The notes below the pieces were generated by a model. That model was not told the DNA's origin. It was given only the letters and a program-made list of their open reading frames with translations, and made no database searches. From a bacterium (GTDB lineage Bacteria > UBA8248): a stretch of DNA of 64,000 nt. The translations under genes were made by a program, and so were the position numbers. Shown here piece by piece: positions 1-49,708 of the stretch. Position 1 is the stretch's first letter. The number at the start of each line of letters is the position of its first letter. Location of the stretch: the NCBI GenBank assembly GCA_965204535.1, contig OZ241996.1, forward strand, positions 512,001-576,000, read 5' to 3'.

Positions 1-5
1 GCTTC

Positions 6-842: not shown

Positions 843-952
843 CTGGTAAGCCTATCCGGGATTTTCCCGGCATGAAGGTCCTGGTTTCGCCGCGTGGGGT
901 GAGGAAATACGGGGCGGGCCGATGTATCCGTCCTTATGGCGAGAGGATTACC

Positions 953-980
953 GTAGGGACAGGTCGCGACCTGTCCCTAC
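953..980. repeat. GTAG-type REP-like perfect palindrome GTAGGGACAGGTCGCGACCTGTCCCTAC
   Basis: 28-bp perfect palindrome; identical copy at 55582-55609. Confidence 0.85.
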
Positions 981-1102
981 CCCGCATCCCCGTTATTCCC
1001 GCTTCCGACGTCCGGGGAGCGATTTGGATTGCATAGAATGCCGAGGCGGAAGAGGCATCCTTGGCGATACATTTTTTTGAATTTGACAAGGAGAAATTGC
1101 AA

Positions 1103-2782: not shown

Positions 2783-3582
2783 TGGGTATTTTTCTGATAG
2801 GGGTCGATTGCGCGACGGAACCAAAGAAGACAGGTCTTGCTCGGGCTAAGTTCGACGGGGGGAATTGCTGTCTTCTGGATGTGAAAATGGGATCGACTGA
2901 CGTGGCGGGCCAGTTGTGTGAATGGATAAGCGACGACTCTCCAACTCTTCTCGCACTCGACGCTCCTTTGGGGTGGCCGGACGGTTTTGGGAGTAAGTTG
3001 GCAAGTCACAAAGCTGGTCAAACAATCAAGAGAACTTGTCGGGAAGTATTCTTTGATCGCGAAACGGATCGTGTTGTCCGTAAGGAGTCAGGACAAAAGC
3101 CGCTCAGTGTGGGTGCTGACAGGATCGCGCGAACCTCTTTTGTCGCCTTGGAGATTCTCGAAAAAGTTCGGCAAAACCAGAAAAGCAAGGGGCAGGATAT
3201 ATCCATAGCTTGGACCCCGGAAATTCAGGGCGTGCAGGCGATAGAGGTCTATCCCGCCGCCACTCTGAAAATGTATGAATACCCGAACAAGGGTTATAAA
3301 AAGCAAGGGAACATTGACCAGCGAAAAATCCGAGAAGAGATTACCAATAAGCTATGTAAGCATTTTAAGCCTAGAATTAAACAATCTTTACAAGATCGAA
3401 TGCTAGATGACCCTGACGCTTTGGATGCCGTTGTCTGTATTCTCGCAGCGTTAGATTTCCTGGTAGGTGATGCAATAGGGCCAGAAAACGGCCGAGAACG
3501 GAAGAGGGCCGAAAAGGAAGGCTGGATTTGGTTCAGGCGCGAACTTTTCGAGCGAGCTTCCTCCCCAGAAACGCGCGCGTGA
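2782..3582 (+). CDS. DUF429 family protein (predicted RNase H-fold nuclease)
   Basis: IGVD, ALDAPLGWP, RETD, IEVYPAA, DALDAVVC, EGWIW motifs; visibly lower GC than flanks. Confidence 0.8.
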   Translation: MGIFLIGVDCATEPKKTGLARAKFDGGNCCLLDVKMGSTDVAGQLCEWISDDSPTLLALDAPLGWPDGFGSKLASHKAGQTIKRTCREVFFDRETDRVVRKESGQKPLSVGADRIARTSFVALEILEKVRQNQKSKGQDISIAWTPEIQGVQAIEVYPAATLKMYEYPNKGYKKQGNIDQRKIREEITNKLCKHFKPRIKQSLQDRMLDDPDALDAVVCILAALDFLVGDAIGPENGRERKRAEKEGWIWFRRELFERASSPETRA

Positions 3583-22477: not shown

Positions 22478-23980
22478 ATGAGTAAGGGGAACGACAGAAA
22501 TGGTGGGTATCTCTCCTGCGACGCCAATGGCGCTAAGCAGAAGGGAGCTTACTATACCCCTGACCCGGTAGTACGTAGTCTGCTCAGTTGGGCTGTCAGG
22601 AATCCTGATGATCGTCTTCTGGATCCATCTTGCGGGGATGGGCGCTTCATCGCCGGCCATCCCAACAGTGTCGGTATCGAATTGGACCCGTCTGCGACTC
22701 CCGTCGCCATACATCGCGCGCCTCATGCGATGGTTCATGAGGGTGATTTTTTTGCATGGGCGAGCAACACCGAAGAGCGTTTCGAATGCGCCGCCGGGAA
22801 TCCCCCTTTCATCCGTTATCAGCGATTCAAAGGCGTTCAACGTCAAAGGGCCATAGCTCTTTGCGCCGAGCTAGGTGCCACCTTCTCGAGGCTGACCTCT
22901 TCCTGGCCGCTTTTCCTGGTTGTTACGGCCCACCTCCTGCATCAGGGCGGACGCATGGCCTTCGTTGTTCCGGCGGAAATAGGACATGCGCCATATAGTG
23001 CTCCGCTGATCGAATATCTGATAGAGCGTTTCGACCACCTGCAAATCGTCGCAGTTCGAAAAAAGCTTTTCCCCGAGCTATCGGAAGATTGCTGGCTGCT
23101 CTACGCTGACGGTAAGGGTGGCTCCACTAGCCATATAAAACTTAGTGCTCAGGAACGGTTTACCTTCAGTGAAATGCCGCCGACTGAAACAACGAATGTA
23201 AGTGTGGAAACTTGGCGCAACTCGTGGAACAAGCGCCTGCGGCCTTTTCTGTTGCCCGTAGCGGCCCGAAATCTATACGGACGACTCGCTTCAGACGAGA
23301 ACAGCTTACGATTTCGTGAATTCGCGCAAGTCAATATCGGCTATGTTTCAGGGGCGAACGACTTTTTCCACCTGCGCCCGTCCGAGGTCGAGAGACTTCA
23401 AATCCCGAGCGATTGTTTGCAAACGACGGTGCGAAACGCACGTTCTTTGCCGCCTGTGCAGGTCAATCCATCCGCAGTCAGCCGCTGGCTCCGAGAGGAT
23501 CAGAAAACGCTACTATTACGCCTGAGAAAAGAGCAAAAACTTCCCCAAACCGTTCTGGCATACCTGCGCACTTCGCAAGCTACGCAAGCTGCCGAGGCAT
23601 TCAAATGTCGAACGCGCAATCCCTGGTACGTAGTCCCGGACGTCAAGATTCCCGATTTCTTCCTTAGCTATATGTCCGGCCGACGGGTCTCTTTCGTGCG
23701 GAATGCGGCGCGTTGCGCGTGCACGAATTCACTACATGCAGTGCTGCTAAAGGACAAATCGATGCTGCCACGCATTCAAGCGGCGTTTCGTTCGGGGGTC
23801 TTCCAGTTCAGCTGCGAAATAGAAGGTCATCCGTTGGGTGGAGGCATGTTAAAGCTGGAGCCCCGGGAGGCGGGCAATATCCTGGTCCCGTCCGAAACGG
23901 CGCTTTCAGAGGATGTAAAGAAGGTAGTTCAAGACGGCATAACGGCGCTTCAGGCCTGGAGGCATTATGAAGCGGCTTGA
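22478..23980 (+). CDS. Type II N6-adenine DNA methyltransferase (gamma class)
   Basis: GAYYTP, LDPSCGDG, GNPPF, GGGMLKLEP. Confidence 0.9.
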   Translation: MSKGNDRNGGYLSCDANGAKQKGAYYTPDPVVRSLLSWAVRNPDDRLLDPSCGDGRFIAGHPNSVGIELDPSATPVAIHRAPHAMVHEGDFFAWASNTEERFECAAGNPPFIRYQRFKGVQRQRAIALCAELGATFSRLTSSWPLFLVVTAHLLHQGGRMAFVVPAEIGHAPYSAPLIEYLIERFDHLQIVAVRKKLFPELSEDCWLLYADGKGGSTSHIKLSAQERFTFSEMPPTETTNVSVETWRNSWNKRLRPFLLPVAARNLYGRLASDENSLRFREFAQVNIGYVSGANDFFHLRPSEVERLQIPSDCLQTTVRNARSLPPVQVNPSAVSRWLREDQKTLLLRLRKEQKLPQTVLAYLRTSQATQAAEAFKCRTRNPWYVVPDVKIPDFFLSYMSGRRVSFVRNAARCACTNSLHAVLLKDKSMLPRIQAAFRSGVFQFSCEIEGHPLGGGMLKLEPREAGNILVPSETALSEDVKKVVQDGITALQAWRHYEAA

Positions 23981-24872
23981 AGATTTCACGGAGAAGGATT
24001 GGAAAGTCTGCCACTGGCTCGGAGCCAAAGAGACCTTCCATCACCTCGCTACATCCAAAGAAAAAACGCAAAGTCAACACATCGTCAAGCCGCTCCATTG
24101 GTATATCGCCTGCCGTCTGGTCATTGAAGGCGGGTTTCAACCCGATGAAATAAAGCCCCATCCGCCGTTCCAGGTTGTAAAGAAGGGCACAAGCTATCTC
24201 TTGCGCTTCGATTCGAATGCGGCAAGCGGTGAAGAGGCGACTGTATTAGGTGGTCTGAAAACCAAAGATATAGACGTAGTCGTGGAAAAACCCGGTATTG
24301 GTCCTGCCATTGCTATCTCCTGTAAAACCACCGGGAAGGCGTTTCGCAATCTCACCAATCGAATGGAAGAAGCGGTTGGTGAGTGTACAAACTTGCACAT
24401 GACCTACGCTGCGCTCGTAATCGGATTCTTCTCGGTGCTTCGAGCGCATCGCGCCGGGAGCGACCCTGAGTTCCATGTCAACGACGTTGCCCTCCAGGAA
24501 GACGGAAATCCGGTGGACGGTATCGTCCGCTACCACGAAGCATTCAAACAACTACAAGGACGCGGCGACTTACGTGATTCAATCAGTAAATACGAAGCGA
24601 TCAGCCTCGCTTTGGTGGAAACGAGCGGTCCGAATACCGGAAAGTTGCTCGATACCTTCCCGCCAATGGGAAGCCCTTTACGCTTCGAACGATTCTTTGA
24701 GACGATTTACAAACGGTATGATGAGCGGTTTGTATTTGCGGCGCCTATTTTAGCCAGACGCAACGTAACACCCCGGATTGAATGGGACTCGAATTCGCCT
24801 TTATTCAACGGCGACTTGCTGATGCAACTCGGAGAAGTACCCCAACTCGATTACGAACCTCGCACTTCTTAG
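23967..24872 (+). CDS. Putative type II restriction endonuclease, PaeR7I/XhoI-like
   Basis: KDIDVVV...AISCK...FRNLTNRMEEAVG; overlaps the MTase stop. Confidence 0.7.
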   Translation: MKRLEDFTEKDWKVCHWLGAKETFHHLATSKEKTQSQHIVKPLHWYIACRLVIEGGFQPDEIKPHPPFQVVKKGTSYLLRFDSNAASGEEATVLGGLKTKDIDVVVEKPGIGPAIAISCKTTGKAFRNLTNRMEEAVGECTNLHMTYAALVIGFFSVLRAHRAGSDPEFHVNDVALQEDGNPVDGIVRYHEAFKQLQGRGDLRDSISKYEAISLALVETSGPNTGKLLDTFPPMGSPLRFERFFETIYKRYDERFVFAAPILARRNVTPRIEWDSNSPLFNGDLLMQLGEVPQLDYEPRTS

Positions 24873-24936
24873 AGGTAATGCCTTTTTCACTCATGCCATC
24901 AGAGCCAGGCCCTCTCCGCTCGGTTGATAGCGACGC

Positions 24937-25036
24937 CGGAATCAAAGCGCGGACTTTGCTCATGGTCGCACTGGTGCATATGCAGGACCCCGAGGAACTC
25001 TGCGATATCTTCGAGCAGGCCGGGGGGCGGGGGTGA
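24937..25036 (+). repeat. Diverged copy of the last 100 nt of the asparaginase gene (22156-22255)
   Basis: Translates GIKARTLLMVALVHMQDPEELCDIFEQAGGRG* versus GVKARTLLMVALAHTEDLKELRDIFEQAGGRG*. Confidence 0.9.
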
Positions 25037-25066
25037 GGGGGGAGAGCAGAGAGAGGTGTGAGGGTA

Positions 25067-25245
25067 TGTAGGGGCGGACCGGCGTGTCCGCCCTGTCGGC
25101 TCCGCGGGTCTTGCCTAACTTGTAGGGGCGGCTCGCGAGCCGCCTTGTAATTCAAGGCGCATTCTCATCCGTAGGGGACGGCCTCCGTGCTGTCCCACCC
25201 CCCGGCGTCGTCTCAGATGTAGGGACACATACGTGTGTCCCTCTC
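25067..25245. repeat. Cluster of four GTAGGG-headed REP-like hairpins with different stems
   Basis: GTAGGGGCGGACC..., GTAGGGGCGGCTCGCGAGCCGCC, GTAGGGGACGG..., GTAGGGACACA... Confidence 0.75.
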
Positions 25246-25293
25246 GGTCCCAAAACGCCCAAACAATCTCCCTTCCCGATCGTGAATGTTCTT

Positions 25294-25359
25294 GCCGGGC
25301 GCGACGAGACGGATTTGAGAAGGGAGGAGGCGTTTCCGGGGGTGAGGGGGTTTGTGTGA
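25294..25359 (+). repeat. Third, more eroded copy of the MBL hydrolase 3' tail
   Basis: CGACGAGACGGATTTGAGAAGGGAGGAGG...TTTGTGT; shares the GATTTG variant with the 22284 copy. Confidence 0.88.
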
Positions 25360-25516
25360 GGTCAATCCCGACCGGGGGGGAGAGTTCTCTTGATCCGTTC
25401 GACCCTCAAAAGATAGACTTCCGCAACATTCAGGCTCGTGTTTATTTGCATTTGCTTCCGTAGGGGCCGCTCGCGAGCGGCCCGCCTGTGTCGTGTGAGT
25501 TTCGGGAGGAAGAGAG

Positions 25517-28500
25517 TTGAGCGTCAGTTTTCACGAAATGCTGGATCAGATTCGCGCCGTCTCCGATTCGGAGCGCGAGAAGGGTGGCCGCTTCGAGCGG
25601 GTGATGAAAAAGTTTTTCGCCGAAGACCCCTTGTATAAGGAGCGCTTCTCAAACGTATGGCTCTGGTCTGAATGGGCGGCCCGGCATTCGGGCTTTGACG
25701 GAAGCGATACGGGGGTCGACCTCGTGGCCGAAGAGAGCGAAGGCGGCTATTGCGCCATACAGTGCAAGTGCTATGCGCCCGACACGCGAATCTCGAAACC
25801 GGATATCGACTCGTTCATATCCGCTTCCGCCCGCGACCCATTCACCGCCCGCATCGTGGTGGATACCGGCCATCCGTGGGGGCCGAACGCCAAGAAGACC
25901 ATCGCCGGGCTCAAGCCCAAGTGCGACAGGCTTTGCCTGGACGATCTGATCCATCGGTGTTTCGACTGGCCCGATCTGGTTCACGAAGAACCCGAAGACC
26001 TGCGTTATCGGCCCGAGACGTTCCGCCTGCGTCCGCATCAACGCGAAGCGTTCGACGATTGCATGGCGCGTTTTCGAGAGCATGATCGCGGCAAGCTCAT
26101 CATGGCGTGCGGCACGGGCAAGACTTTTACCGCGCTCCGCATCGCCGAGGCCGTCGCGGGCGTCGGCGGACGGGTGCTCTATCTCGTGCCTTCGATTTCG
26201 CTGTTCGCCCAATCTATGCGGGAATGGGCGACGCAAAAGGATATTCGCCACCGTTATATCGGTATCTGTTCGGATACGCGCGCCGGAAAAAGGGACGAGG
26301 ACGCCTCGCTGGAAGAGCTTGAAATTCCCGTTACCACCGAGCCGTCTAAAATTTCAAAAGCCTTACAACTGGCGGGAGCGCGCGCGATGACGGTGGTTTT
26401 CTGCACATATCATTCGCTTCCCCTCGTGGAGGATGCCCAAAAAGAGGGTGCGCCGCCGTTTGACTTAATCCTTTGCGACGAGGCGCACAGGACGACTGGA
26501 ATCGAGCGGCCCGAAGACGAGAAAACCTCGCCTTTCGTGCTCGTTCACGATGGCGAAAAAATCAAGGCTGAAAAGCGCCTCTACATGACGGCCACGCCGC
26601 GCCTTTATACAGCAAGCGCCAAGGAAAAAGCGGCGCGCCACGAGGTCGAGGTATTCTCGATGGACGATGAGGCGACCTACGGGCCGGAGTTCCACCGTCT
26701 TCATTTCTCGCGGGCGGTCGAGCAGGATCTACTCTCCGATTATAAGGTTGTGGTTCTGGGCGTATATGAGCAGCAGGCCGACGTGATGCTGACCCGGCAT
26801 CTGGCATCGAAGGACAGCGATATCCCCATTCCAGACGCGGCGAAGGTGGTCGGCTGCTGGCGCGCGCTGCAAAACCCGGAGAACAAGGGGAAGGACGAGG
26901 GGTCGATCCGCCCCCTCAAGCGCGCCATCGCGTTCACGAATACGATCGAATCCTCGCAGCGGCTGGAAGCGCATTGGGAGGATCTCATCACGCAGGAACG
27001 CGACAGGCTGCCGGAGGAAGAACGAGCGGACGCATTGCAATGCAAGACACGCCACGTCGACGGGCAGCAAAACGCGCTGGATCGGAAAAACAGCATCGAC
27101 TGGCTCAAGGGTGATTCCGAAGAAGAGAACGGAGCCTGCCGGATTCTCTCGAACGCGAGGTGTCTGTCCGAGGGCATCGACGTGCCCGCCCTCGACGCGG
27201 TGCTCTTCATGAGTCCGCGAAACTCGCACGTAGACATCGTTCAGGCCGTGGGCCGTGCCATGCGCAAGGCCGAGGGCAAGGAATACGGTTACATCATCTT
27301 GCCGATAGCTGTGCCTGCGGGCGTAGATCCGGCTCGCGCCCTCGACCGCAACGAGCAGTTTGAGGTCGTCTGGAGCGTGCTCCGCGCTCTTCGCTCGCAC
27401 GACGACAGGCTCGACGCGGAGATCAACAAGATAGACCTCAACAAGGCGCTCCCTGAAGGCATCATCATCTTCGACGGAGAGGGGAGCGAAAAGGTGGATG
27501 TCTCCGAACTGCCTTTTCCACCTGTCGAACTGCCGCCCGGCGCGATGTTCGCCAAGATCGTGGATAAATGCGGGGACAGGAAATACTGGCAAAGCTGGGC
27601 GGAGGACGTGGCGGATATCTTCACCCGGCTGGTCGAGCGAATCGGGAACCTGCTGAAGAGTCCTGAAAACGTAACCCTTCGTGAGTGGTTCGGCGATTTC
27701 CACGAAGAGTTGAAAATCTCCATCAATGAATCCATCACCCGCGAGAGCGCTGTAGACATGATGGCCCAGCATATTCTCACGCGGCCCGTTTTTGAGGCGC
27801 TCTTCGAGGGCTACGATTTCGCCGCGGGCAACCCGGTGTCGCAGGCGCTGGACAGGCTGCGGGCGGACTTCGTCGAATTCGGTCTTGAAAACGAGATTCG
27901 GGACATGGAGCCTTTCTACGAGAGTGTCCGCAACCGCGCGCGCGGCCTCGACAACTCTGAAGCCCGCCAGCGTGTGCTCATGGAGCTTTACGAGAATTTC
28001 TTCGCCACCGCCATGAAAAAGGACGCAGACAGGCTGGGGATCGTCTATACGCCGCCCGAGGTGGTGGATTTCATCCTGCACAGCGCCGATCACGTATTAC
28101 AGGAGGAGTTCGGGCGCAGCCTGAGCGAAGAGGGTGTGCACTTGCTCGACCCGTTCACGGGCACGGGCATCTTTCTCGTGCGGCTTATTCAATCGGCTCT
28201 TATTCACGATGCCGATCTATTGAGGAAATACCGCGAAGAGTTACACGCCAACGAGATCATACTGCTCGCCTACTACATCGCGGCGATTCACATCGAAGAG
28301 GCGTTCCATGGCCGCCTCGGTCCCGAAACCGAGTATGAACCTTTTGACGGTATTGTATTAACTGACACCTTTAATCTGCATACCGAGAAAACGGGTTTTC
28401 CGAAAACATGGCTCCCGGATAACAGCGCGCGGGTGGAGCGCCAGCAGAAATCGCCGATTCAAGTGGTCGTCGGCAATCCTCCTTGGTCGGTTGGGCAGAG

Positions 28501-30259
28501 AAGCGCAGCAGATGAAAATCCGAATGTGGACTATCCTGAGCTTGAGCGGCGCGTCGCCGAGACATATGCCGCTCGTTCGACGGCAACAAACAAGAACAGC
28601 CTTTATGACACTTACAAAATGGCGATCCGCTGGGCTTCCGACCGTATTGGCGAGCAGGGTGTCGTCGCTTTCGTAACGAATGGTTCATGGATTGACGGCA
28701 ACGTGGATTCAGGTGTGCGCGCCTGTCTGGCGGAGGAGTTCAGCGCGATATACGTTCTGAATCTGCGGGGGAATGCGCGGACATCGGGCGAATTGCGACG
28801 TTCCGAAGGCGACAACGCTTTCGGTCAGGGTTCCCGTGCTCCGGTGGCGATCACGATACTCGTTCGCAACCAGAACGCCACGGGCGAGGATTGCCGCATT
28901 CACTACTGCGACATCGGCGATTATCTCAAGCGCGAGAAGAAATTATCGATCCTGCGTGAGGCCGAGTCGATTGTGGGAATCGAGGACTGGCGAGAGATTT
29001 CGCCCGATGATCACCACGACTGGATCGGTCAGCGCAACGCAGAGTTTCAAAATTTCAGACCGTTGGGGTCGAAGGACGCAAAGGCCGGCAGGGTGGATGA
29101 GGCGATATTCGAACTTTATTCGTCAGGGATAAAAACTGGCAAAGATGTGTATATGTGTAATTTTTCCCACGACATTTGCGCGGAAAATGCCAGTAGGATG
29201 GTGGAAGACTACATGGGTGCGATGGGGGAATTAAAAGGATCTGGCAACCAGCTCCCAGATATTGACAGCATTATTCGCAACTATTCCTCAAACCTTCGGT
29301 GGGACAGAGAACTCAAAAACAATTTGAAGAGAACAAAAACAGTTTGTTATCAGCCAGACAACATCATGAAGACTCAGTACCGTCCCTTTGTAAAGCAACA
29401 CTGTTACGTTGAATATCTATTCGTACAGATGAAATACCGAATGGATAGCATCTTTCCGTCTGCCGACAGCGAAAACCGAGCGATCTGCATTCCGGGCGTC
29501 GGTTCCACCAAGCCGTTCTCGACACTCGTGGTCGATATGATGCCGGACATCCAACTGATGTTTAATGGTCAATGCTTTTCACGCTTTCGGTATCAGGAGC
29601 AAGCCTACGCGCAGGTCGACCTTCCTGGCTTTGAAGAAAAGCTGATGCAGGTGGACAACATCACGGATACTGCCTTGCGAACTTTCCGCGTTCATTACAA
29701 GGATAATCAGATTAGCAAGGATGCGATTTTCGACTACATTTACGGCGTGCTCCACGCCTCCGACTATCGGGAACGCTTCGCCAACGACCTCTCGAAAGAG
29801 TTGCCGCGCATCCCCCTGGCCCCTGATTTTCACGCTTTCGCTGAAGCCGGGCGCGCGCTGGCGGAACTCCATCTGGGCTACGAGACCTGCGCGGAATACC
29901 CGCTTGAAATGACTTTTGCGGGAGAGGGCGAACCACGCCGGGAACATTTCCGCATTAGTAAGATGCGTTTTTCAGATAAGGAGGAGAAAACGACTCTCAT
30001 CGTCAACGATTTCGTGAGCTTGCGCGGTATCCCCCAAGAGGCTCATCACTATGTCGTCAACGGGAGGGCGCCCCTTGAGTGGTTCATCGACCGCTACCGG
30101 ATTACACAGGACAAGCAAAGCGGCATTATCAACGACCCCAACGGGTGGTTCGACGACCCGAGGGACTTGATAACCGCAATTCGGCGGGTCGTGCACGTGA
30201 GCGTGGAAACCGCCCGCATCGTCAGCGGTTTGCCGGAATCCTTGCCCTCTGAATCCTGA
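25517..30259 (+). CDS. Type ISP restriction-modification enzyme (Mrr-like nuclease, SF2 helicase, N6 MTase, TRD; LlaBIII/LlaGI-like)
   Basis: DTGVD..QCK, ACGTGKT, DEAH, QAVGRAMRK, DPFTGTG, GNPPW, YRPF; 1580 aa. Confidence 0.93.
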   Translation: MSVSFHEMLDQIRAVSDSEREKGGRFERVMKKFFAEDPLYKERFSNVWLWSEWAARHSGFDGSDTGVDLVAEESEGGYCAIQCKCYAPDTRISKPDIDSFISASARDPFTARIVVDTGHPWGPNAKKTIAGLKPKCDRLCLDDLIHRCFDWPDLVHEEPEDLRYRPETFRLRPHQREAFDDCMARFREHDRGKLIMACGTGKTFTALRIAEAVAGVGGRVLYLVPSISLFAQSMREWATQKDIRHRYIGICSDTRAGKRDEDASLEELEIPVTTEPSKISKALQLAGARAMTVVFCTYHSLPLVEDAQKEGAPPFDLILCDEAHRTTGIERPEDEKTSPFVLVHDGEKIKAEKRLYMTATPRLYTASAKEKAARHEVEVFSMDDEATYGPEFHRLHFSRAVEQDLLSDYKVVVLGVYEQQADVMLTRHLASKDSDIPIPDAAKVVGCWRALQNPENKGKDEGSIRPLKRAIAFTNTIESSQRLEAHWEDLITQERDRLPEEERADALQCKTRHVDGQQNALDRKNSIDWLKGDSEEENGACRILSNARCLSEGIDVPALDAVLFMSPRNSHVDIVQAVGRAMRKAEGKEYGYIILPIAVPAGVDPARALDRNEQFEVVWSVLRALRSHDDRLDAEINKIDLNKALPEGIIIFDGEGSEKVDVSELPFPPVELPPGAMFAKIVDKCGDRKYWQSWAEDVADIFTRLVERIGNLLKSPENVTLREWFGDFHEELKISINESITRESAVDMMAQHILTRPVFEALFEGYDFAAGNPVSQALDRLRADFVEFGLENEIRDMEPFYESVRNRARGLDNSEARQRVLMELYENFFATAMKKDADRLGIVYTPPEVVDFILHSADHVLQEEFGRSLSEEGVHLLDPFTGTGIFLVRLIQSALIHDADLLRKYREELHANEIILLAYYIAAIHIEEAFHGRLGPETEYEPFDGIVLTDTFNLHTEKTGFPKTWLPDNSARVERQQKSPIQVVVGNPPWSVGQRSAADENPNVDYPELERRVAETYAARSTATNKNSLYDTYKMAIRWASDRIGEQGVVAFVTNGSWIDGNVDSGVRACLAEEFSAIYVLNLRGNARTSGELRRSEGDNAFGQGSRAPVAITILVRNQNATGEDCRIHYCDIGDYLKREKKLSILREAESIVGIEDWREISPDDHHDWIGQRNAEFQNFRPLGSKDAKAGRVDEAIFELYSSGIKTGKDVYMCNFSHDICAENASRMVEDYMGAMGELKGSGNQLPDIDSIIRNYSSNLRWDRELKNNLKRTKTVCYQPDNIMKTQYRPFVKQHCYVEYLFVQMKYRMDSIFPSADSENRAICIPGVGSTKPFSTLVVDMMPDIQLMFNGQCFSRFRYQEQAYAQVDLPGFEEKLMQVDNITDTALRTFRVHYKDNQISKDAIFDYIYGVLHASDYRERFANDLSKELPRIPLAPDFHAFAEAGRALAELHLGYETCAEYPLEMTFAGEGEPRREHFRISKMRFSDKEEKTTLIVNDFVSLRGIPQEAHHYVVNGRAPLEWFIDRYRITQDKQSGIINDPNGWFDDPRDLITAIRRVVHVSVETARIVSGLPESLPSES

Positions 30260-41859: not shown

Positions 41860-42361
41860 AAGGGCACGGCGGGCACAAATCCGATATGTCCCATGGCGGT
41901 AAAGGCAAGGCAATGGAGCACGGAGACACGGGAAGAAATAAAATCGATGATTAGACAATAGAGGCGCAGGTAAACCCGAGGGCGCGCTTGTGATTTCATC
42001 AGAATGCCAAGGTGGTAACCCTCAACTTGTGGCCCATTGATAAATAGATTTTTTCTTTTTGAGAACGTATTTCGCGTGGTTAGAGGCGGTGGGGGGTTTT
42101 CAGCGGGCTTAGAATCCTTGTAGTCTGCTGAAAGTATTGCGGGTATTTGTTTATTTTGAGTTTCAGCCGAGGTTCGGTTATCTACGATATGTAATCAAAT
42201 CGGATGCGGACGAATTCTAACTCACGCGTATCTCGTAGCGTCCGTGTCGTTAAGCGTTCGGGCGGGCCGTGATGGACCCGGCGCCGGGCGCATCGCCTCC
42301 ATCGGATAGAATTTTCCCGGGCGACTGGTAACGCGATTCGACATGTGCTAATGATGTCGGC

Positions 42362-44716
42362 ATGAAGATTCGCGCAGAAGCTGTCGAGACGGAGTTGGCG
42401 TTGGCCGAGAGGCCGGATGAGCCATGGCCTCATTCCCCCGGGTTGTCCACAACCGCAGAGGCGTACTGGCGTTCGCTGTACGAGCGCGAGCGTGCGCGCG
42501 CGGAGGCGGCGGAGGCGCGCTGCGAGGAGTTGCGTTGGGCGGAAGTGGATTCCCGCTCCCGTGCGGGCAAGCTGAAGCGGCATCTCGACGCCAGCCGGAA
42601 GAAGCTCGAGGCGGCCGCCGGGGAGGCGAAGGAAGCCCGCCGCGCGGCGAAGGACGCGCTGTCGCTCAAGGCGGAAGTGGCGCGGCTGGAGAAGCTGCTT
42701 GCGGAGGCGGGGGTCGATCCGCGCAAGCGCAGCCCGCTCATGTCGCTGCGCATGGAGGTCGTCCGGCTTCGCAAGGAGCTCTCGGGCGTGCCGTCGCCGG
42801 GGGAGGCGGGGCGGCTGCGCAAGGCCCTGGAGGAGCGCAAGGAGACGATTCATGCCCTGCGCAAGGAGGTCGGCCGGCGGGAGAAGGAAGTTGCCCGGCT
42901 CGAAGATCGTCTGGCCCTGGAGAAGCAGAAGTCGGCGACCGACAAGGAGACCATTCGGAGCCTGGACGAGGAGGCCATCGGGCTCTACAGGAAGTTGAGG
43001 CGATTGCGCGACCAGGCGGAGGTGGTCGAGTCGCTGTCTGCGGAGGTCTACCGTCTTGAAGTCTCCCTGGGGGCCGTAGGCATTGCGACCGAACGGCTGA
43101 AGGCGCGGTTGCTGCGCGCTCTCGAGGCGGCGCGCTCGAAGTCGCCGTCTCGTGCAGATGAGGAACTGCGCAAGGCCCTGGGGAGGTCGCGGCGCCAGAA
43201 GACGGCGCTCAGGTCGCTGTCGAGGGAGAACGGGCGTCTTCGCAGGGCGCTCCGCAAGTCAGAGACCATCCGGGCGCGGCTGGAGGCCGATCTCGCGAAG
43301 CTTCGCGCCACCGGAGCGGTGCTGGCGAGAAGACTGTTCGGGCGCAAGAGCGAACGGCAGGAGAGGCCGCGCTCGGAGCGCAGGCGCGGCCGGCAACCCG
43401 GCGCCGCCGGTCATGGCCGCACCCCGCGGCCCGCGCTCGATGAGAGGACCGAAGTTCGCAACCCGCCGGCCGGTGCGCGCGTCTGCGCCGGTTGCGGGAA
43501 GCCCTACGTGGCCAATGGCGCCGAGGTCTCCTCCATCTTCGAGATCGAAGTCTCGGCCCACAAGCGCGTCATCCGCCGTCCGAGATGGCGCAGGAGATGC
43601 GCGTGCGCGTCGTCTCCGGTGGAAGTGTCGGCGCCCGCCGCGCCGCGCCTGTTCGCGGGCACGCCTTACGGGACGAGCGTGTGGGCGCGCTTCCTGTTCG
43701 AGCGCTACGCCTGCTTCCGCCCGCTGCGCCGGGTCGCCGCGTGGCTCTCCGACCAGGGGCTTCCGGTCTCTGCAGGCACACTGGGCGACAGCACGCACCG
43801 CTTCACGCCGCTCTTCGAGCCGCTGGCTGCGGCGATCCTCGACCGCCAGAACGAAGCGGCGGTGCGTCACGGGGACGAGACGACGTGGCGCGTTCAGTCG
43901 CTTCGCGAACAAGGACGCTCGAGCCGCGCCTGGCTGTGGACCTCGGTCAGCGCAGACTCCGTCTACTTCCACGTCGACCCCTCGCGGAGTGCTGAGGTCG
44001 CGATGAAGCTGTTCGGCGCGGCCGGCTCCCATACGGTCATCGTCTGCGACCGCTACAGCGCCTACAAGAAGCTGGCGCGCATTCCCGGGGGTCTGGTGAC
44101 TCTCGCATGGTGCTGGAGTCACGTCCGGCGCGATTATATCCACTGCGCCGCCGGCGATGAGCGGCTGACGCCGTGGTGCGAGAGATGGATCGAGCGGATT
44201 GCCTTGCTTTACCGCCTGAACGAGGCGCGCCTGGCCAGTTACGACCCGGGCGTCGAACGCCAGGATGCGGCGTTCGACGCGGCGCACGACGAATTGAAGA
44301 AGGCGCTCAAGGACCTGTTCGCGCAGGCCCGACGGGAGATGGCCGCTCTGCCCGCGCAGGCGCGCGAGGGCAAGGCGCTTCGCTCGCTGCTGAACCACCG
44401 CGAGGGGCTGAGCGTCTTCATCGAACGCCCCTCGGTGCCGATGGATAACAACGCCAGCGAACGTGCGCTTCGGGGCCCTGTGATCGGCAGGCGGCTCTCG
44501 TTCGGCTCCGACAGCGAGGCCGGCGCCAGGTTTACGGCGATGATGTACTCGGTCCTCGGAACCCTCGCGTCGAACGGGGTCGACCCGCTCCGCTGGCTGG
44601 AGGCATGGCTCACGGCCTGCGCGGAGAACGGCGGCCGGGCGCCCGGGGACCTCTCCGCGTGGCTGCCCTGGTCGATGAGCACGGAGCGCAGGCGCGCCCT
44701 CACGGCGCCGGGATGA
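42362..44716 (+). CDS. IS66-family transposase with about 320-aa N-terminal coiled-coil extension
   Basis: LFGRKSE, CAGCG zinc finger, HGDET, CDRYSAY, CWSHVRR, DNNASERALR. Confidence 0.9.
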   Translation: MKIRAEAVETELALAERPDEPWPHSPGLSTTAEAYWRSLYERERARAEAAEARCEELRWAEVDSRSRAGKLKRHLDASRKKLEAAAGEAKEARRAAKDALSLKAEVARLEKLLAEAGVDPRKRSPLMSLRMEVVRLRKELSGVPSPGEAGRLRKALEERKETIHALRKEVGRREKEVARLEDRLALEKQKSATDKETIRSLDEEAIGLYRKLRRLRDQAEVVESLSAEVYRLEVSLGAVGIATERLKARLLRALEAARSKSPSRADEELRKALGRSRRQKTALRSLSRENGRLRRALRKSETIRARLEADLAKLRATGAVLARRLFGRKSERQERPRSERRRGRQPGAAGHGRTPRPALDERTEVRNPPAGARVCAGCGKPYVANGAEVSSIFEIEVSAHKRVIRRPRWRRRCACASSPVEVSAPAAPRLFAGTPYGTSVWARFLFERYACFRPLRRVAAWLSDQGLPVSAGTLGDSTHRFTPLFEPLAAAILDRQNEAAVRHGDETTWRVQSLREQGRSSRAWLWTSVSADSVYFHVDPSRSAEVAMKLFGAAGSHTVIVCDRYSAYKKLARIPGGLVTLAWCWSHVRRDYIHCAAGDERLTPWCERWIERIALLYRLNEARLASYDPGVERQDAAFDAAHDELKKALKDLFAQARREMAALPAQAREGKALRSLLNHREGLSVFIERPSVPMDNNASERALRGPVIGRRLSFGSDSEAGARFTAMMYSVLGTLASNGVDPLRWLEAWLTACAENGGRAPGDLSAWLPWSMSTERRRALTAPG

Positions 44717-44720
44717 CGCC

Positions 44721-45593
44721 GTGACCGAGTGCCGCTACCACGGACGCGACTTCACGACGGAAGAGATGGCGCTGCTGCGCGAACTGATCGCAGGTCCACC
44801 TGCGCTCAACCGCCATGCGCTATCGAAGGAGTTCTGCCGCCGAATCGGCTGGTACAAGCCCGACGGCGGACTCAAGGACATGATGGCCCGGGTGACTATG
44901 CTGGCCATGCACAAGGACGGCCTGATCACGCTGCCCCCACCGAAGTGGCGCCAGAACCGGCCCGGGCCGATCGTCTTCGGACCCGACACCGAACCTCCCC
45001 TCATCCCGGCGCCTGAGACCCTCGACGAAGTCCGCCCCCTCGATATGCGCGTCGCCGTGCGCGGAACCCGCGAGGGCAGGCTCTGGAACGAGTTCGTCGC
45101 CCGCTACCACTACCTCGGCTACAAGACCCTCGTCGGCGCGCAGATGCGCTACGCCGTCCACGACCGGGGCGGCAGGCCCCTCGCCATGCTCGGCTTCTCC
45201 ACCGCCGCGTGGAAGCTCGCCCCGCGCGACAGCTTCATCGGCTGGACGCCGCAGCTGCGCGAGAAGAACCTCCCCCTCGTGGTCGACAACCCGAGGTTCC
45301 TCATCCTGCCATGGATCAGGATCCTCAACCTCGGCTCACACCTCCTCGCCATCATCCGCAGGCGCCTGCCCGAGGACTGGACCGAGCGCTATGGCACGAC
45401 ACCCGTCCTCGTCGAGACCTTCGTCGAGACGCCGCGCTACACCGGCGCCGTCTACAGGGCATCGGGGTGGATTCACGTCGGTATGACCCAGGGGCGTGGA
45501 CGCTACGACAGATACACGAAACGAGACCAACCGAAAAAGGACATCTGGCTACGACCGTTGCGCAGAAACTGGAAGCAAGTCCTCAACCGGTAA
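44721..45593 (+). CDS. DUF4338 family protein (DruA-like label; Mom/GNAT-like fold inferred)
   Basis: WNEFVARYHYLGY, RDSFIGW, NPRFLILPW, ETFV, YRASGW..G.TQGRG. Confidence 0.85.
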   Translation: MTECRYHGRDFTTEEMALLRELIAGPPALNRHALSKEFCRRIGWYKPDGGLKDMMARVTMLAMHKDGLITLPPPKWRQNRPGPIVFGPDTEPPLIPAPETLDEVRPLDMRVAVRGTREGRLWNEFVARYHYLGYKTLVGAQMRYAVHDRGGRPLAMLGFSTAAWKLAPRDSFIGWTPQLREKNLPLVVDNPRFLILPWIRILNLGSHLLAIIRRRLPEDWTERYGTTPVLVETFVETPRYTGAVYRASGWIHVGMTQGRGRYDRYTKRDQPKKDIWLRPLRRNWKQVLNR

Positions 45594-45662
45594 AATCATC
45601 CCCCATTCCGGCCCGAACTACTGCTTCAAGGCACTACCATCACGGCCCGCCCGAACGCTTAC

Positions 45663-46347
45663 GCAGAAGCTGAAGCGGCGCATAGTAAACATCCGATGCG
45701 GATGCGTCCTTTAGCTCTACAATCACCAGGCGGCCTTGCGGATCGACGGCAATCTGATCGATCTCGTTGCTCTTTTTCCTTTGCGGCAACATCGCCCAGT
45801 GGTCTCTACGGGAAGGCAGCTTCCGCTTGGATGCAACGATGGCGCCCAGTTGAACATACGCATCGTCGATCTTCTGGCACTCCATGGCTTTCGCCTTTTC
45901 CGTTTCGGACTCGTAGGCGAGCACAGCATCCCGGTCGAAGGGTACCCAGGGCTCCGTGACACGCGACCAGCGTGCCTGTATGCCGCCCTCACGCGCCGTC
46001 TGCGCTTCGGCTACGGCCACGTTGTCCAGGTAGTTGCTCAGCGTCTCCTCGAAGCCAGGTTCCTGGGTGTTCCATTCCCGGAACAGACCCCCTGCACAGG
46101 GTTGTGTCGTGTACGTACTTTCTGCCGTAAAGTCGGCCATCCCGTTTTTCAGACGTATATCGACAAGCTTTGTAAGGCCACAGTAGACGATTACCTTATC
46201 GTCCAAGCGCAGATGCACATCGAGATGGCAGCGAGCGACCTTCCGCTTCGAGAGTGCAAGCAGTGGCGCGAGAAATCCTCCCGGAGACAGGAGCGCCTGC
46301 ATCTCCGGCGAAGGTGCGCGATCATAGGTGGGTTTTGGCGTCATCAT
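45663..46347 (-). pseudogene. PD-(D/E)XK-like hypothetical protein truncated at its 3' end by the IS66 element
   Basis: IDQIAVD...IVELKD motif; the frame runs into the IS right end. Confidence 0.6.
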
Positions 46348-46415
46348 GTACCTCCCGGCATTGACAGCGGTGGTGCATCCGAGAGCCTGAGCATTATACT
46401 CTCCGCCTTCGCCGC

Positions 46416-47054
46416 TTAGCGCACCTCTATCATGAGGTATCGGAACTGCTGATTGGCAGCTTCACCGAAGCTGAAATAATCTCTCCAGACACAATCGTAA
46501 GAACCTTTCAGACGTATTGGTTCTTCCCTGCCATTCGTGGTGCCCTTAGCGGCTTTAGGGGACCATGCCATCTCACCCGAAATCTCTCTGCCTTGGTGGA
46601 GACGAAAATCGGCGTCAATCGTCGATCTCGAAGAAAATTTCCAGTAGGACGGATCATTCGTCAGTAAAATCGCATATCCTGTTTTTGCGGGCTGGAAATC
46701 GGCCACTAATCGCTCAAGTCTCTGGATATCATTGAGAAAATCGTATCGGCCTTGATCTGGTGCGCTTTGATCCTTGAGCGCAAAGGCTTCTTTCTTCCAC
46801 TCCTGGGCTAGTTTTTTGCTCCGGTATTTGAGTTCGATTGCGACCCCCACGCCCGGAAGCCAAATGTCCAAATACATCCTTTCATCTTGGAAAGGCTTGT
46901 ACTCCAGGCGAATTTCATCGCTCGGCATTGCCTTGTGAAGCTGCCAGGCAAGAGCATGCTGAAAATCCGCTTCGGAGTGAAAGATCGGACGTTCTTCTTT
47001 CAAGTTCTCCATCAGTCCGGATACATCCAGCGTAATCAATTGAGCCTCCATCAA
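46416..47054 (-). CDS. Hypothetical protein, PD-(D/E)XK nuclease-like
   Basis: SEADFQH...LE...LDIW...AIELKY...DIQRLE; lower GC. Confidence 0.65.
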   Translation of the reverse strand: MMEAQLITLDVSGLMENLKEERPIFHSEADFQHALAWQLHKAMPSDEIRLEYKPFQDERMYLDIWLPGVGVAIELKYRSKKLAQEWKKEAFALKDQSAPDQGRYDFLNDIQRLERLVADFQPAKTGYAILLTNDPSYWKFSSRSTIDADFRLHQGREISGEMAWSPKAAKGTTNGREEPIRLKGSYDCVWRDYFSFGEAANQQFRYLMIEVR

Positions 47055-47160
47055 TTTACACGCCTGCCTGTCACAAGCTATTCCACTCCATCGACCTGGT
47101 CTTGCAGGTTACTATCACAGCATCCGCTATGTATTGTTCGCAAGCCTCCCCCCAGCCTAC

Positions 47161-48330
47161 TCAGAGAATATCCTCCGCGATGCTCTCCGCGACCCGCCCG
47201 GCCGCCTCCTGGGCCGAGTCGCGCGCGAGGTGCGCGTAGCGCGCCGTCGTCTCCATCTTGCTGTGGCCCAGGAGCTTCCCGATCACGGGGAGCGCCTCGC
47301 CGAGCGCAAGCGCCCGCGAGGCCCAGGAGTGGCGCAGGTCATGGATCCGCACGCCTTCGAGACCCGCGCGCTCCCTTATCGTTCGCCAGGCCTCGTCGAC
47401 GTTCCTCAAGGGCGTCCCCGGCTTCCTCCCCGGTATGACCCAGGGGCCGTCGTGGGCGCTCAGGAGACTCGCGAGGAGCTCGACCGCCTGCGGCGGGAGC
47501 GGGACCGCCCGCGCGCCCGTCTTGGAATCGGGCAGCCTGAGTTCGGCCGCTTCGAGCGCCACATCCTCGCGGCGCAGCCCGAGCACCTCGCTCCTGCGGC
47601 ACCCGGTAAGCGCCAGGAGCCGGATGGCGGCCACCGCGGACGCGGACGCGCCGCCCCGGGCCTCCGCCTCCTCGAGCGCCTCTCCCAGGCGGGTGAACTC
47701 CGAATCCGTCAGGAACCGCTCGCGCCTGCGCTCGGGGTATTTGACGAGAGCCTTGCAGGGATTCGGGGTTCCCTCGGGAACCATTCCCCAGCCCGCGGCC
47801 AGGCGGTACATCGAGGAGAGGATGCGGAGCGCCGTGTTCGCCACCGCGGGCGTCTCGTAGAGGCTCTCGTGGAATTCCGCCACCTGCGCGCGAGAGAGCG
47901 CGGCCAGCGGCAGCCTGCCCAGGGCGGGCAGGACGTGGCGGTCGATTACCGATCGGTAGAGCGCGGCGGTGCCCGGCCTGCAGCGCACCGCGACGTATTC
48001 CGTGAGATAGCGCGCGCACACCTCATTCACCGTGGGGCCTCCCGCCGGCTTCATCGGCTCGGGAACCGCCTCCTCGCCCGCCTTGATACGCGCGATGATG
48101 TGGGCGGCGCGTTTTCTCGCCTCGTCGGCGTTGATCACCCCGTGGCGGCCCACGGCCACGCGTTTGGGACCCTCGGGCCCCCGCGCCTGGGCGACGTAGA
48201 CCTTGCTCCCGGTGGGATAGACCCTCACGCCGAAGCCCGTGAGCTCCCGGTCCCAGTACACCGTGTCCTTCTCCACTTTCAATTTTGCGACCGCGCGGTT
48301 CGACAGCGTTTTCATGACGGGCTGTTTCAT
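47161..48330 (-). CDS. Tyrosine recombinase/integrase with N-terminal arm-binding domain, copy 2
   Basis: WDRELTGFGVRV, TGCRRSE, DSKTG, HDLRH, LGH, RYAH. Confidence 0.93.
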   Translation of the reverse strand: MKQPVMKTLSNRAVAKLKVEKDTVYWDRELTGFGVRVYPTGSKVYVAQARGPEGPKRVAVGRHGVINADEARKRAAHIIARIKAGEEAVPEPMKPAGGPTVNEVCARYLTEYVAVRCRPGTAALYRSVIDRHVLPALGRLPLAALSRAQVAEFHESLYETPAVANTALRILSSMYRLAAGWGMVPEGTPNPCKALVKYPERRRERFLTDSEFTRLGEALEEAEARGGASASAVAAIRLLALTGCRRSEVLGLRREDVALEAAELRLPDSKTGARAVPLPPQAVELLASLLSAHDGPWVIPGRKPGTPLRNVDEAWRTIRERAGLEGVRIHDLRHSWASRALALGEALPVIGKLLGHSKMETTARYAHLARDSAQEAAGRVAESIAEDIL

Positions 48331-49511
48331 CCGTGCTCAACCCTCCCGTTGGCGACGTGGGCGCCGATGTTCCCGCCCACCCGCACCGCCGCCTCCCTCT
48401 CGGCCTCGCGCATCAGGTGCGCGTAGCGCGCGCTCGTCGCCACGCTCGTGTGGCCGAGGAGTTTCCCGATCGTGTAGAGGCTCTCGCCCAGCGCCAGCGC
48501 CCTCGACGCGTAGGAATGCCTGAGGTCGTGAAGCCTTACGTCTGCGAGCCCCGCCCGCTCCCTTACGGGCCGCCAGTAGTGGTGCAGGCCCGTGAGGCGT
48601 TTTCCCGGCCTTTGGCCCGCGATCACCCAGGGGTTCTCCCCGGAGCGGGGGATGGCGTCCAGTATCCTGAGTACGGGCCTGGTCAGGGGGACCATCCGGG
48701 GACCCGCCTTGGCGTCCCTGAGTCTCAGGTCCCCAGCCGTGCGGTCCACGTCGTCCCACCCGAGATTCAATATCTCGCCCCTGCGGCACCCGGTAAGTGC
48801 GAGCAGCCGGATGGCCGCGATAGCGGGCGGCCATACCCCGCCCTCCGCCTCGGCTTGCCTGAGCGCACGGCCCAGCCTCCGGTATTCCTCAGGCGTCAGG
48901 AACCGCTCGCGCGCCTGCGTCCTGTAGCGGCGCACGGCGAGGCAGGGGTTCCGCCCGGGCGGGACCAGCTCCCACGCTTCGGCAAGTACGAACATGCGCG
49001 AGAGCAGATGGACCGCCTGGTTCGCCAGGACCGGCGTATCGCGAAGGTCGTGATGGAGCGCCGTGACTTCCGCTCCGCCGATCTCGGTAAGCGCCGTCCC
49101 GCCCATGGCCGGCAGGATGTGTTTGTCGAGCACGGTGCGGTATGCGGCAACGCTGGCGGGCTTCAGGTGTTTCTCCACGTGGGTGCGCATGAAGCGTTCG
49201 GCGAGTCCCGCCACGGTGGTCTCCGCCCCGGGCGCCGCGGCGCTGAAATCCTCGCCGCGCTTGATGCGGTCGATAATGAGGGCGGCCTGTTTCCTGGCCT
49301 CATCGACGGCCAGCTCCCCGTGACGGCCGAGCGTCACGCGCCTGGGACCCCCGGGTCCCCGGGACTGCACCACCCAGGTCTTTCTGCCGGTGGCGTGGAC
49401 GCGCACCCCGAAGCCCGCCAGCTCCCGGTCCCAGAAGACGCCGTCCTTCCCGTCGGCCTCGAGCGCGTCGACGGTGCGCTTGGTGAGTTTCAGATCGCTT
49501 CGCTTCGGCAT
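48327..49511 (-). CDS. Tyrosine recombinase/integrase with N-terminal arm-binding domain, copy 1
   Basis: WDRELAGFGVRV, TGCRRGE, DAKAG, HDLRH, LGH, RYAH; GGAGG RBS; 4-nt overlap with copy 2. Confidence 0.93.
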   Translation of the reverse strand: MPKRSDLKLTKRTVDALEADGKDGVFWDRELAGFGVRVHATGRKTWVVQSRGPGGPRRVTLGRHGELAVDEARKQAALIIDRIKRGEDFSAAAPGAETTVAGLAERFMRTHVEKHLKPASVAAYRTVLDKHILPAMGGTALTEIGGAEVTALHHDLRDTPVLANQAVHLLSRMFVLAEAWELVPPGRNPCLAVRRYRTQARERFLTPEEYRRLGRALRQAEAEGGVWPPAIAAIRLLALTGCRRGEILNLGWDDVDRTAGDLRLRDAKAGPRMVPLTRPVLRILDAIPRSGENPWVIAGQRPGKRLTGLHHYWRPVRERAGLADVRLHDLRHSYASRALALGESLYTIGKLLGHTSVATSARYAHLMREAEREAAVRVGGNIGAHVANGRVEHG

Positions 49512-49708
49512 GTTCCCTCCTGAATCTGTAATCAAAACGCATACGTACGGCATCAAAGCGGGGGCTATTCGAGCATATATTTGGCGAAAGCGCAAGGGGT
49601 AGCTGGGTACGGAATAACAGAAAAATGGTATTATAAACAATCAGTTATCGTAGACAAGCGGAGCCAATCATACTATCGCGCCGACACCGGGTTCATGACA
49701 ATGATTAA

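Follow-up and report, generated by a model that had tools for sequence, protein, structure and literature searches.

An IS66-family insertion sequence in the window, by which we mean the whole 64,000-nucleotide stretch of DNA analysed, encodes a predicted Mom-like GNAT directly behind its transposase. We give an even chance to the reading that this enzyme acylates DNA bases for the element's own benefit and that the element's copies lie 19-20 bp past a likely island-end arm motif. The element spans 3,413 bp (42250-45662, including the terminal base) and has the following features:
42250..42275, + strand: left inverted repeat (IR), with a first base unlike that of the other 12 copies
42362..44716, + strand: ORF1, an IS66-family DDE transposase of 784 aa (Pfam, NCBIfam)
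44721..45593, + strand: ORF2, a DUF4338/PF14236 protein of 290 aa (Pfam, predicted structure)
45637..45662, - strand: right IR

The two 25-nt IR arms, at 42251-42275 and 45637-45661, show 100% complementarity and enclose only the transposase and ORF2, which starts 4 nt past the ORF1 stop; tnpA and tnpB are absent. IR alignment, ORF analysis and Pfam searches confirmed this arrangement as an earlier note on the sequence had described it, with 25-bp perfect terminal repeats around the transposase and the downstream DUF4338 gene. The IRs begin with GTAA and hold at all positions in the other 12 copies and at 25/26 positions in the window copy, the exception being the first base of the left end, which is T here and G in those copies; a contig from run X1, possibly the source sample, spans this left junction with 0 differences. 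In total the genome holds 13 copies of the element at 10 sites, with the second ORF present in 13/13 and an 8-bp target duplication at 10/13; no target duplication was found at the flanks of the window copy. The earlier note had mentioned neither the copy number nor this missing duplication. X1 read depth is ~268 on the insertion sequence and 17-32 on its flanks. An assembly artefact is ruled out by the 8-bp duplications in independent flanks, the offset target duplications of tandem copies, and the agreement of depth with copy number. No sigma-70-like promoter was found in 42000-45800, and the single RNA run yielded contigs of relatives only.

ORF1 matches Pfam DDE_Tnp_IS66 (PF03050, 1.6e-56) and NCBIfam NF033517 (5e-85, 285.9 bits against a cut-off of 180), with DDE motifs near residues 505, 563 and 700. 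Canonical IS66 elements (IS66, IS679) are organised as tnpA-tnpB-tnpC; ours shares their transposase family, IR type and 8-bp duplication but lacks TnpA and TnpB, and its accessory gene is a GNAT downstream of the transposase. The nearest sister transposases (35-42% identity) come from single-ORF elements that likewise have neither tnpA nor tnpB and close with an IR ~140 nt past the transposase. ORF2 is therefore an addition and not a replacement for TnpA/TnpB, and the earlier description of it as standing "instead of" those genes was misleading. ISDge4, a single-ORF IS66 element of the ISBst12 group, has an 8-bp repeat (PMC12898284). The present element resembles that group in its IS66 DDE transposase, GTAA-type IRs, 8-bp duplication and lack of tnpA/tnpB, but differs in the second gene within its IRs, in a coiled-coil-like N-terminal extension of ~260 aa that is unmatched in the single-ORF sisters, in length (3.4 kb against ~1.9 kb) and in a strong fixed-distance target preference.

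ORF2 matches PF14236 (DruA, formerly DUF4338) at 2e-38 and 132.6 bits over residues 102-265, a partial match covering model positions 45-226 of 297. The protein has a small predicted three-helix N-terminal domain (~1-70) and a predicted Mom-like GNAT domain (~104-290); its AF2 model has a pLDDT of 94. In a VIA structure search of 48,161 PDB chains, the first-ranked match was Mu Mom (8bv8; Z 14.5, rmsd 3.4, 164 residues aligned) and the next scored 12.5, so that the lead of Mom over ordinary GNATs is only 2 in Z; Foldseek placed Mom 18th among GNATs, and a phage Mom was within the top ten matches in BFVD. Likeness in sequence is weak (hhalign probability 2.7%; PHROG Mom-like E=0.0013). The Pfam Mom family PF25680 matched 7/61 members of the ORF2 family at E<=0.01 (best 1e-4) and reached 25.9 bits, below its cut-off of 27.1, in another relative; the Pfam search gave no PF25680 match for ORF2 itself. 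A sequence search of the PDB gave no significant match, the phage collection gave no match, and 2 plasmid records were found.

Mu Mom is a Gly-tRNA-dependent enzyme of N6-adenine glycylation that requires H58, Y59, R111, S124, D149, R151 and Y159 (PMC13219725). Candidate equivalents in ORF2 are H130, Y131, R192, S206, E236, R239 and Y245; the S, D and Y pairings derive from the weak hhalign alignment and the H/Y and R111 pairings were made by hand from motif and spacing, hhalign itself not aligning Mom R111 to ORF2 R192. Positions H130, R192, S206, D/E236, R239 and Y245 are kept in every architecture in which the ORF2 module occurs, and Y131 is replaced by P in 46/46 Tn5-type fusions. ORF2 has a predicted GNAT fold in common with Mom and candidate equivalents of its seven key residues, but the two proteins are only 13-16% identical, and ORF2 is borne on an insertion sequence and has an extra N-terminal domain. 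The essential helix-turn-helix insert of Mom (175-209) has no apparent counterpart in ORF2, where only a basic loop of ~18 residues lies between strands E251-255 and E273-279. The Mom/GNAT resemblance proposed in the earlier note is upheld by the predicted GNAT fold, by Mu Mom as the best structural match and by conservation of the candidate active-site equivalents, and ORF2 is predicted to be a GNAT and a Mom-like DNA-modifying enzyme.

The same GNAT domain might instead acylate a protein or RNA (for example the transposase, a host nucleoid protein or tRNA) and thereby control transposition or serve as a weak addiction factor. Most of the top fold matches are ordinary small-molecule or protein acetyltransferases (Z 11-12.5), the Mom helix-turn-helix insert appears to be missing, and a protein substrate would be in keeping with the fusions to transposases; DUF4338 is also treated as a GNAT co-effector, possibly targeting proteins, in one study (PMC10853773). 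The partners of the module are, however, unrelated transposase families, which argues against one protein substrate, and there is no antitoxin-like gene inside the IRs. The conserved residues of ORF2, moreover, track those of Mom, in which the critical Arg is one that GNATs do not generally share (10.1101/861617). We consider a protein or RNA substrate unlikely.

Among loci collected with ORF2 as seed, a transposase C-terminus lies <=60 nt upstream in 76/77, an IR pair is present in 56 and a duplication in 29. Over 42 pairs, ORF2 has a median dN/dS of 0.21 and the core of the transposase one of 0.38. ORF2 is co-inherited with the transposase and under purifying selection. The co-occurrence of transposase and DUF4338 gene inside the IRs, suggested earlier as a check, held within the element's own clade, where ORF2 is constant, but not across the wider family: 74/80 loci seeded with the transposase are without ORF2, which is therefore not needed for transposition in IS66 elements at large. 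A FastTree phylogeny of 110 rows, one third of the distinct genome loci, places ORF2-positive elements in several deep lineages and at this sampling does not separate single from multiple gain of the gene. The module is also found fused to or adjoining Tn5/IS50, IS4-type, ISAs1 and UPF0236 transposases, in addition to IS66. The 120 longer matches include 46 Tn5-type, 24 DDE_Tnp_1 and 18 distant IS66 fusions; the ISAs1 fusions are multi-copy with 10-bp duplications and lack the ORF2 N-terminal domain, which is present in the Tn5, IS4 and UPF0236 elements. Every clade of ORF2 goes with a single transposase family, the 7 label changes being the fewest that could occur. The ORF2 family has 8,571 representatives at E<=0.001.

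A link of this kind has a reported precedent. Iyer et al., in Cell Cycle in 2009, reportedly predicted that Mom-like enzymes are linked to diverse bacterial transposases, a prediction that probably covers the protein family of ORF2; to our knowledge that work included neither a target preference nor an experiment. The fixed-distance target preference of the IS66 element is new here. A literature search, mostly at the level of titles and abstracts, returned no description of DUF4338 in insertion sequences or of IS66 targeting island ends. Neither this preference nor the occurrence of the module in other insertion sequence families had been noticed in the earlier note.

Around the window copy, the features that bear on the target preference and on the host island are:
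42066..42248, + strand: non-coding repeat of ~175 bp, with the element inserted at its 3' end
42191..42230, + strand: 40-bp core of this target repeat, ending 19 bp before the element
45663..46347, - strand: island gene truncated by the right end of the element after residue 228
47161..49523, - strand: tandem tyrosine integrases (Arm-DNA-bind_3 and Phage_integrase)
49528..49541, + strand: 14-bp word also present in the target core, immediately ahead of the integrase start

The ~175-bp repeat has 35 matches genome-wide and is missing at the orthologous site in most genomes of the same genus. With a leave-out HMM, 7/10 insertion sites lie 19-20 bp past the 40-bp motif (19, 20, 19, 19, 20, 19 and 19 bp) and 3/10 of the genome's own sites are not at the motif. 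In other genomes 21/49 elements were at the motif, against 0 controls, and 28/49 were not. Further spacing classes fall near 30, 49 and 59 bp, and both insertion orientations occur. The motif was not found in loci L079-L158, a set that includes six ORF2-positive loci and in which most contigs end near the element. The 14-bp word shared with the motif lies just upstream of the integrase at 12/12 island integrase loci examined, which makes the target likely to be the arm region of island ends; the 40-bp core would then comprise integrase arm-type or accessory binding sites. Other identities for the repeat were rejected: there was no Rfam match to a known RNA; a tRNA att core does not fit this genome, where 11/12 integrase loci lack any tRNA within 10 kb; and the idea that the repeat is the terminal inverted repeat of some larger transposon was not supported, conserved sequence running ~125 bp upstream of the word.

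Site-seeking transposons include the res hunters Tn5053/Tn402 and Tn7, for which TnsD/TniQ acts as target selector. These, too, choose positions a fixed distance away from a site that another mobile element carries, but the present element is a two-gene insertion sequence whose target is an integrase-island end entered in both orientations, and profile searches gave no family match to a TniQ/TnsD selector or an AAA+ ATPase/regulator in either ORF. ORF2 could itself serve mainly as a target selector, its N-terminal domain binding the island-end motif and placing the transposase, with catalysis secondary. The fixed 19-20 bp spacing and its further classes suggest a bound protein, and the ISAs1 fusions that lack the N-terminal domain have flanks without such a motif (judged by eye only). 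Against this, catalytic-type residues are kept in all architectures, and Tn5, IS4 and UPF0236 elements have the N-terminal domain as well, while the target preference is shown for the IS66 clade alone. A single-sequence model of the domain (pLDDT 56) gave a best Z of 5.2, to unrelated helical proteins, and the ESM Atlas returned unnamed clusters only, so we do not call it a winged helix. The opening letters of the 14-bp word resemble those of the element's IR, and recognition of the motif could thus fall to the transposase by itself. A role primarily in target selection seems doubtful to us.

The island that hosts the window copy is ~7.7 kb long. Homologues of its truncated gene run on past residue 228 (a paralogue has 321 aa), and this truncation and the absence of a target duplication jointly suggest an IS-adjacent deletion. 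Defence genes, AbiE and restriction enzymes among them, are found in islands that the element enters. Two restriction-modification (RM) genes lie elsewhere in the window:
22478-23977: Eco57I-like MTase
25517-30256: type ISP RM gene
Their presence had been noted earlier and stands, but the relevance then attached to them is not supported: they are 12-20 kb away, and they appear incidental because the element occupies 10 sites in the genome and its position follows the target motif.

That ORF2 is Druantia-derived anti-phage cargo and plays no part in the life cycle of the element itself is improbable: the homology to DruA is real (the Pfam match above; an hhalign value of 97% against a full-length PF14236 protein of 394 aa), DruA of Druantia type I is closer to ORF2 in sequence than is Mom and the islands entered hold defence genes, but no further Dru gene lies inside the IRs, the PADLOC DruA score is only 21.8 bits, the one full-length DruA examined lacks equivalents of H130, Y131, R192 and S206, each ORF2 clade follows one transposase family and in-frame fusions are common. 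In PADLOC neither the transposase nor either of the two ORFs downstream matched a Dru model, DruB-E are absent here and ORF2 is the shorter protein; the element is not a Druantia system.

Under the reading that ORF2 is a Mom-like enzyme modifying DNA, its acyl donor may be an aminoacyl-tRNA, as in Mom. The module is often fused to the transposase and otherwise translationally close-coupled, from which we infer that little of the product would be made and that it would work close by, on DNA of the element, of its intermediate or of the adjoining island. Such a mark would serve in one of two ways, protecting this DNA from restriction as the island arrives in a new host or tuning the activity of the ends. 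The host Dam methylase does the latter in IS50 and IS10. Whole-island protection fits poorly with an enzyme that acts in cis or is fused. Insertion just inside island ends would let the element ride excision and transfer, the motif being read by the transposase, the ORF2 N-terminal domain or a bound integrase or IHF complex. A broader proposal, which we hold only tentatively, is that at least five insertion sequence families carry their own tRNA-dependent DNA hypermodification enzyme and that this IS66 clade also hunts island arm sites at a fixed distance, marks DNA against restriction and rides islands.

We know of no simple bacterial insertion sequence that encodes a base-modifying enzyme of tested activity. 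Should ORF2 acylate DNA, several insertion sequence families carry an anti-restriction or self-regulating mark, and fused versions could deliver the modification locally. The family also offers thousands of predicted natural Mom-like enzymes, maybe with other amino acids or motifs. A 'DruA' annotation that stands alone beside a transposase should not be taken for a Druantia defence system. The target preference stands independently of ORF2 function: with its insertions a fixed distance from a motif of integrase islands, such an IS66 element would amount to a small transposon with site selectivity, and the pile-up of insertion sequences at island ends would have an explanation.

The insertion sequence (IS) described in the earlier note is real: perfect 25-nt inverted repeats (IRs) surround two closely spaced open reading frames, as listed here.

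Window 42251-42275: left IR arm, 25 nt, perfect complement of the right arm
Window 42362-44716: ORF1, IS66 transposase of 784 aa (Pfam 1.6e-56; NCBIfam 285.9 bits against a cut-off of 180)
Window 44721-45593: ORF2, 290 aa, starting 4 nt after ORF1, with a PF14236 (DruA) match over residues 102-265
Window 45637-45661: right IR arm, 25 nt, perfect complement of the left arm

The element belongs to IS66 and fits the definition of neither IS66 subgroup. ORF2 also gave weak matches to the PADLOC DruA model (21.8 bits) and a PHROG Mom-like family (E=0.0013). An unrelated DUF772/DDE transposase, which we take to be IS1182-like, lies at window 4793-6235.

The element has been recently active. The host genome (G000) holds 13 full-length copies, 12 of them identical across bases 2-3413 and one at 95.6%, and 10 of the 13 carry an 8-bp duplication. 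Six copies form three head-to-tail pairs (C1:900851-907684, C2:366268-373101 and C2:592780-599614) with 8-9 bp of target sequence between the members; these pairs, in one of which the duplications are offset by one base, indicate repeated independent insertion. Read depth in run X1, possibly the source sample, is ~268 across the element and 17-32 in its flanks. The window copy has an altered first base and no duplication, and its right end truncates a gene after residue 228; a homologue in G002 (98% identical) continues beyond this point, and a paralogue reaches 321 aa. A deletion adjoining this copy is the likely cause of both the truncation and the missing duplication.

ORF2 is part of the element. 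In 76 of 77 loci, all fetched by ORF2, a transposase C-terminus lies within 60 nt upstream of ORF2. An IR pair (4 or fewer mismatches over 22 nt) bounds 56 of the 77, with an 8-bp duplication in 29 of those 56; seven of the 56 were inverted duplications or composite pairs and were excluded from later counts. Across 42 distinct pairs from loci picked by ORF2 similarity, median dN/dS was 0.21 in ORF2 and 0.38 in the core of the transposase at similar dS, and three transposase-seeded loci concur (identities of 88, 83 and 72% for ORF2 against 88, 74 and 54% for the transposase). Seeding with the transposase instead narrows this claim: ORF2 is present in only 6 of 80 such metagenome loci, including all three with >50% identity. 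Fifty-nine of these loci leave room of 250 nt or more, and 53 of the 59 lack ORF2, many of the 53 having a closing IR ~140 nt past the transposase; in a FastTree phylogeny ORF2-positive elements are spread over several deep lineages beside an ORF2-less clade of 71 rows. ORF2 has therefore been added to an ISBst12-like element and does not, as had been proposed, stand in for TnpA/TnpB.

The ORF2 module associates with a wide variety of transposases. The longer proteins listed, 120 in number, include 46 Tn5/IS50-type, 24 DDE_Tnp_1-type and 18 distant IS66 fusions. Two genomes carry multi-copy ISAs1-type fusions (L187-L196 in G038, L197-L201 in G039) with only the Mom-like GNAT, N-terminal on the transposase and lacking the small helical domain; L194-L196 show 10-bp duplications. 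Matches were present in 21 of 401 genomes drawn evenly from a single phylum. Outside the centre genome, 17 of 27 loci had a fused or adjacent transposase domain (IS66, Tn5, ISAs1, DDE_Tnp_1 or UPF0236, presumably ISLre2-type); scanning longer same-strand frames revealed none in the other 10, several of which are fragments or contig ends. Mapped onto a tree of 43 rows, the eight labels require 7 changes, the minimum possible. In a second IS66 arrangement the GNAT gene precedes the transposase (L203, L205 and L206, the latter two DUF6444-type), and UPF0236 proteins in L208 and L209 likewise have GNAT genes upstream. Iyer and colleagues reportedly linked Mom-like proteins to diverse bacterial transposases in 2009, and their supplements may include the family of ORF2.

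The suggested resemblance to Mom was borne out at the level of predicted fold. With the AlphaFold2 model of ORF2 (pLDDT 94), Foldseek returned GNATs, Mom at rank 18; with VIA-align the top hit among 48,161 chains was Mu Mom (Z 14.5, rmsd 3.4, 164 aligned; runner-up 12.5), and a phage Mom came ninth in BFVD. The first 70 residues of ORF2 are predicted to form a three-helix domain. Mom moves glycine from Gly-tRNA onto adenine N6; it requires an HTH-like insert as well as H58, Y59, R111, S124, D149, R151 and Y159 (PMC13219725). In ORF2, H130, R192, S206, D/E236, R239 and Y245 are kept in all architectures, the Y131 position is proline in all 46 Tn5 fusions, and the HTH-like insert of Mom is apparently missing. 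In a weak hhalign alignment with Mom (probability 2.7%), S206, E236 and Y245 fall opposite their expected partners and R192 does not; the His-Tyr and Arg pairings therefore come from our own mapping. ORF2 is Mom-like by prediction without showing every defining feature of Mom; DUF4338 has already been termed a GNAT (PMC10853773). A protein or RNA substrate for ORF2 appears unlikely.

The element also has a target preference, missed in the earlier note. Many copies share a ~175-bp non-coding repeat in their flanks. An HMM trained on 23 repeats not adjoining a full-length element gave 35 hits, and for 7 of the 10 insertion sites a hit lies no more than 80 bp away (binomial P ~4e-21, the repeat having first been noticed in these flanks). 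Measured from the end of a 40-bp core, the element begins 19, 20, 19, 19, 20, 19 and 19 bp further on, in either orientation. In other genomes the core lies within 130 bp of an element end in 21 of 49 elements (about four pairs being one site seen twice) versus 0 controls 1 kb away, at distances near 19, 30, 49 and 59 bp; it accompanies 12 of the 13 elements from what appears to be the host's lineage and 9 of the remaining 36. Several lone ends and the following small IR-bounded derivatives, of 123-236 bp and with the ends of the element's IS66 clade, sit at or near target repeats in G000.

C1:919332-919567: MITE-size element
C2:379559-379681: MITE-size element
C2:1593882-1594115: MITE-size element
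C2:1735411-1735533: MITE-size element

Three target repeats with their flanks are identical between C2:1-35000 and C1 ~201000-222000, which suggests assembly overlap or recent duplication. That ORF2 serves mainly in target selection seems rather improbable.

Same-genus genomes lack the repeat at the orthologous position: homology there mostly ends near window 41938, and in G002 and G016 it returns near 49700. Together with the IS and two arm-type integrases, the repeat therefore makes up one inserted segment.

Window 41938-49700: integrative segment, ~7.7 kb, with tandem Arm-DNA-bind_3 integrases

The host genome has ~12 Arm-DNA-bind_3 integrase loci, 11 without a tRNA within 10 kb, and in 12 of 12 the start is closely preceded by a 14-bp word of the core. 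Genome-wide the word occurs 46 times, of which 21 fall in repeats, 13 at integrases and the other 12 elsewhere. The repeats are clustered and non-independent; in 21 of 30 cases the nearest integrase locus is downstream of the repeat on the opposite strand. Three alphaproteobacterial loci (L055, L066, L069) share a tRNA-like stretch, identified in L066 as tRNA-Met by ARAGORN, and in each the motif comes after this stretch, beside an arm-type integrase. We infer that the motif represents the arm or accessory part of the attachment sites of islands, mostly at the integrase-distal end. The fixed spacing to the core and the word common to repeats and integrase loci emerged from the present analysis; in the open-access literature, mostly at title or summary level, we found no description of DUF4338 within an IS or of IS66 targeting of island ends. 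An HTH_17 and Cre-like integrase gene pair recurs downstream of several target repeats (L172:1103-2895, L174:10356-12187), and related segments hold NikA, SLOG, SSB, ParA and AbiE genes.

The element is not Druantia. One full-length DruA aligns with ORF2 at 97% probability, yet lacks the His, Tyr, Arg and Ser. The earlier note had also attached weight to neighbouring restriction-modification genes; these lie 12-20 kb off and have no bearing on the element.

L159:1360-2541: full-length PF14236 protein, 394 aa, in a same-genus genome, adjoining a NurA-domain gene and without the Mom-type residues
Within window 22478-30256: a restriction-modification enzyme of type ISP (1,580 aa), and an Eco57I-like methyltransferase whose low-GC neighbour carries no annotation

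A role for ORF2 as defence cargo is very improbable. The data establish the products of transposition, the linkage of the two genes, selection on them, the predicted fold of ORF2 and the spacing at the target. The preferred reading, held at about even odds, is that ORF2 would acylate DNA bases locally, a mark that would protect or regulate the element, and that insertion at island ends would carry the element between hosts, where restriction matters.
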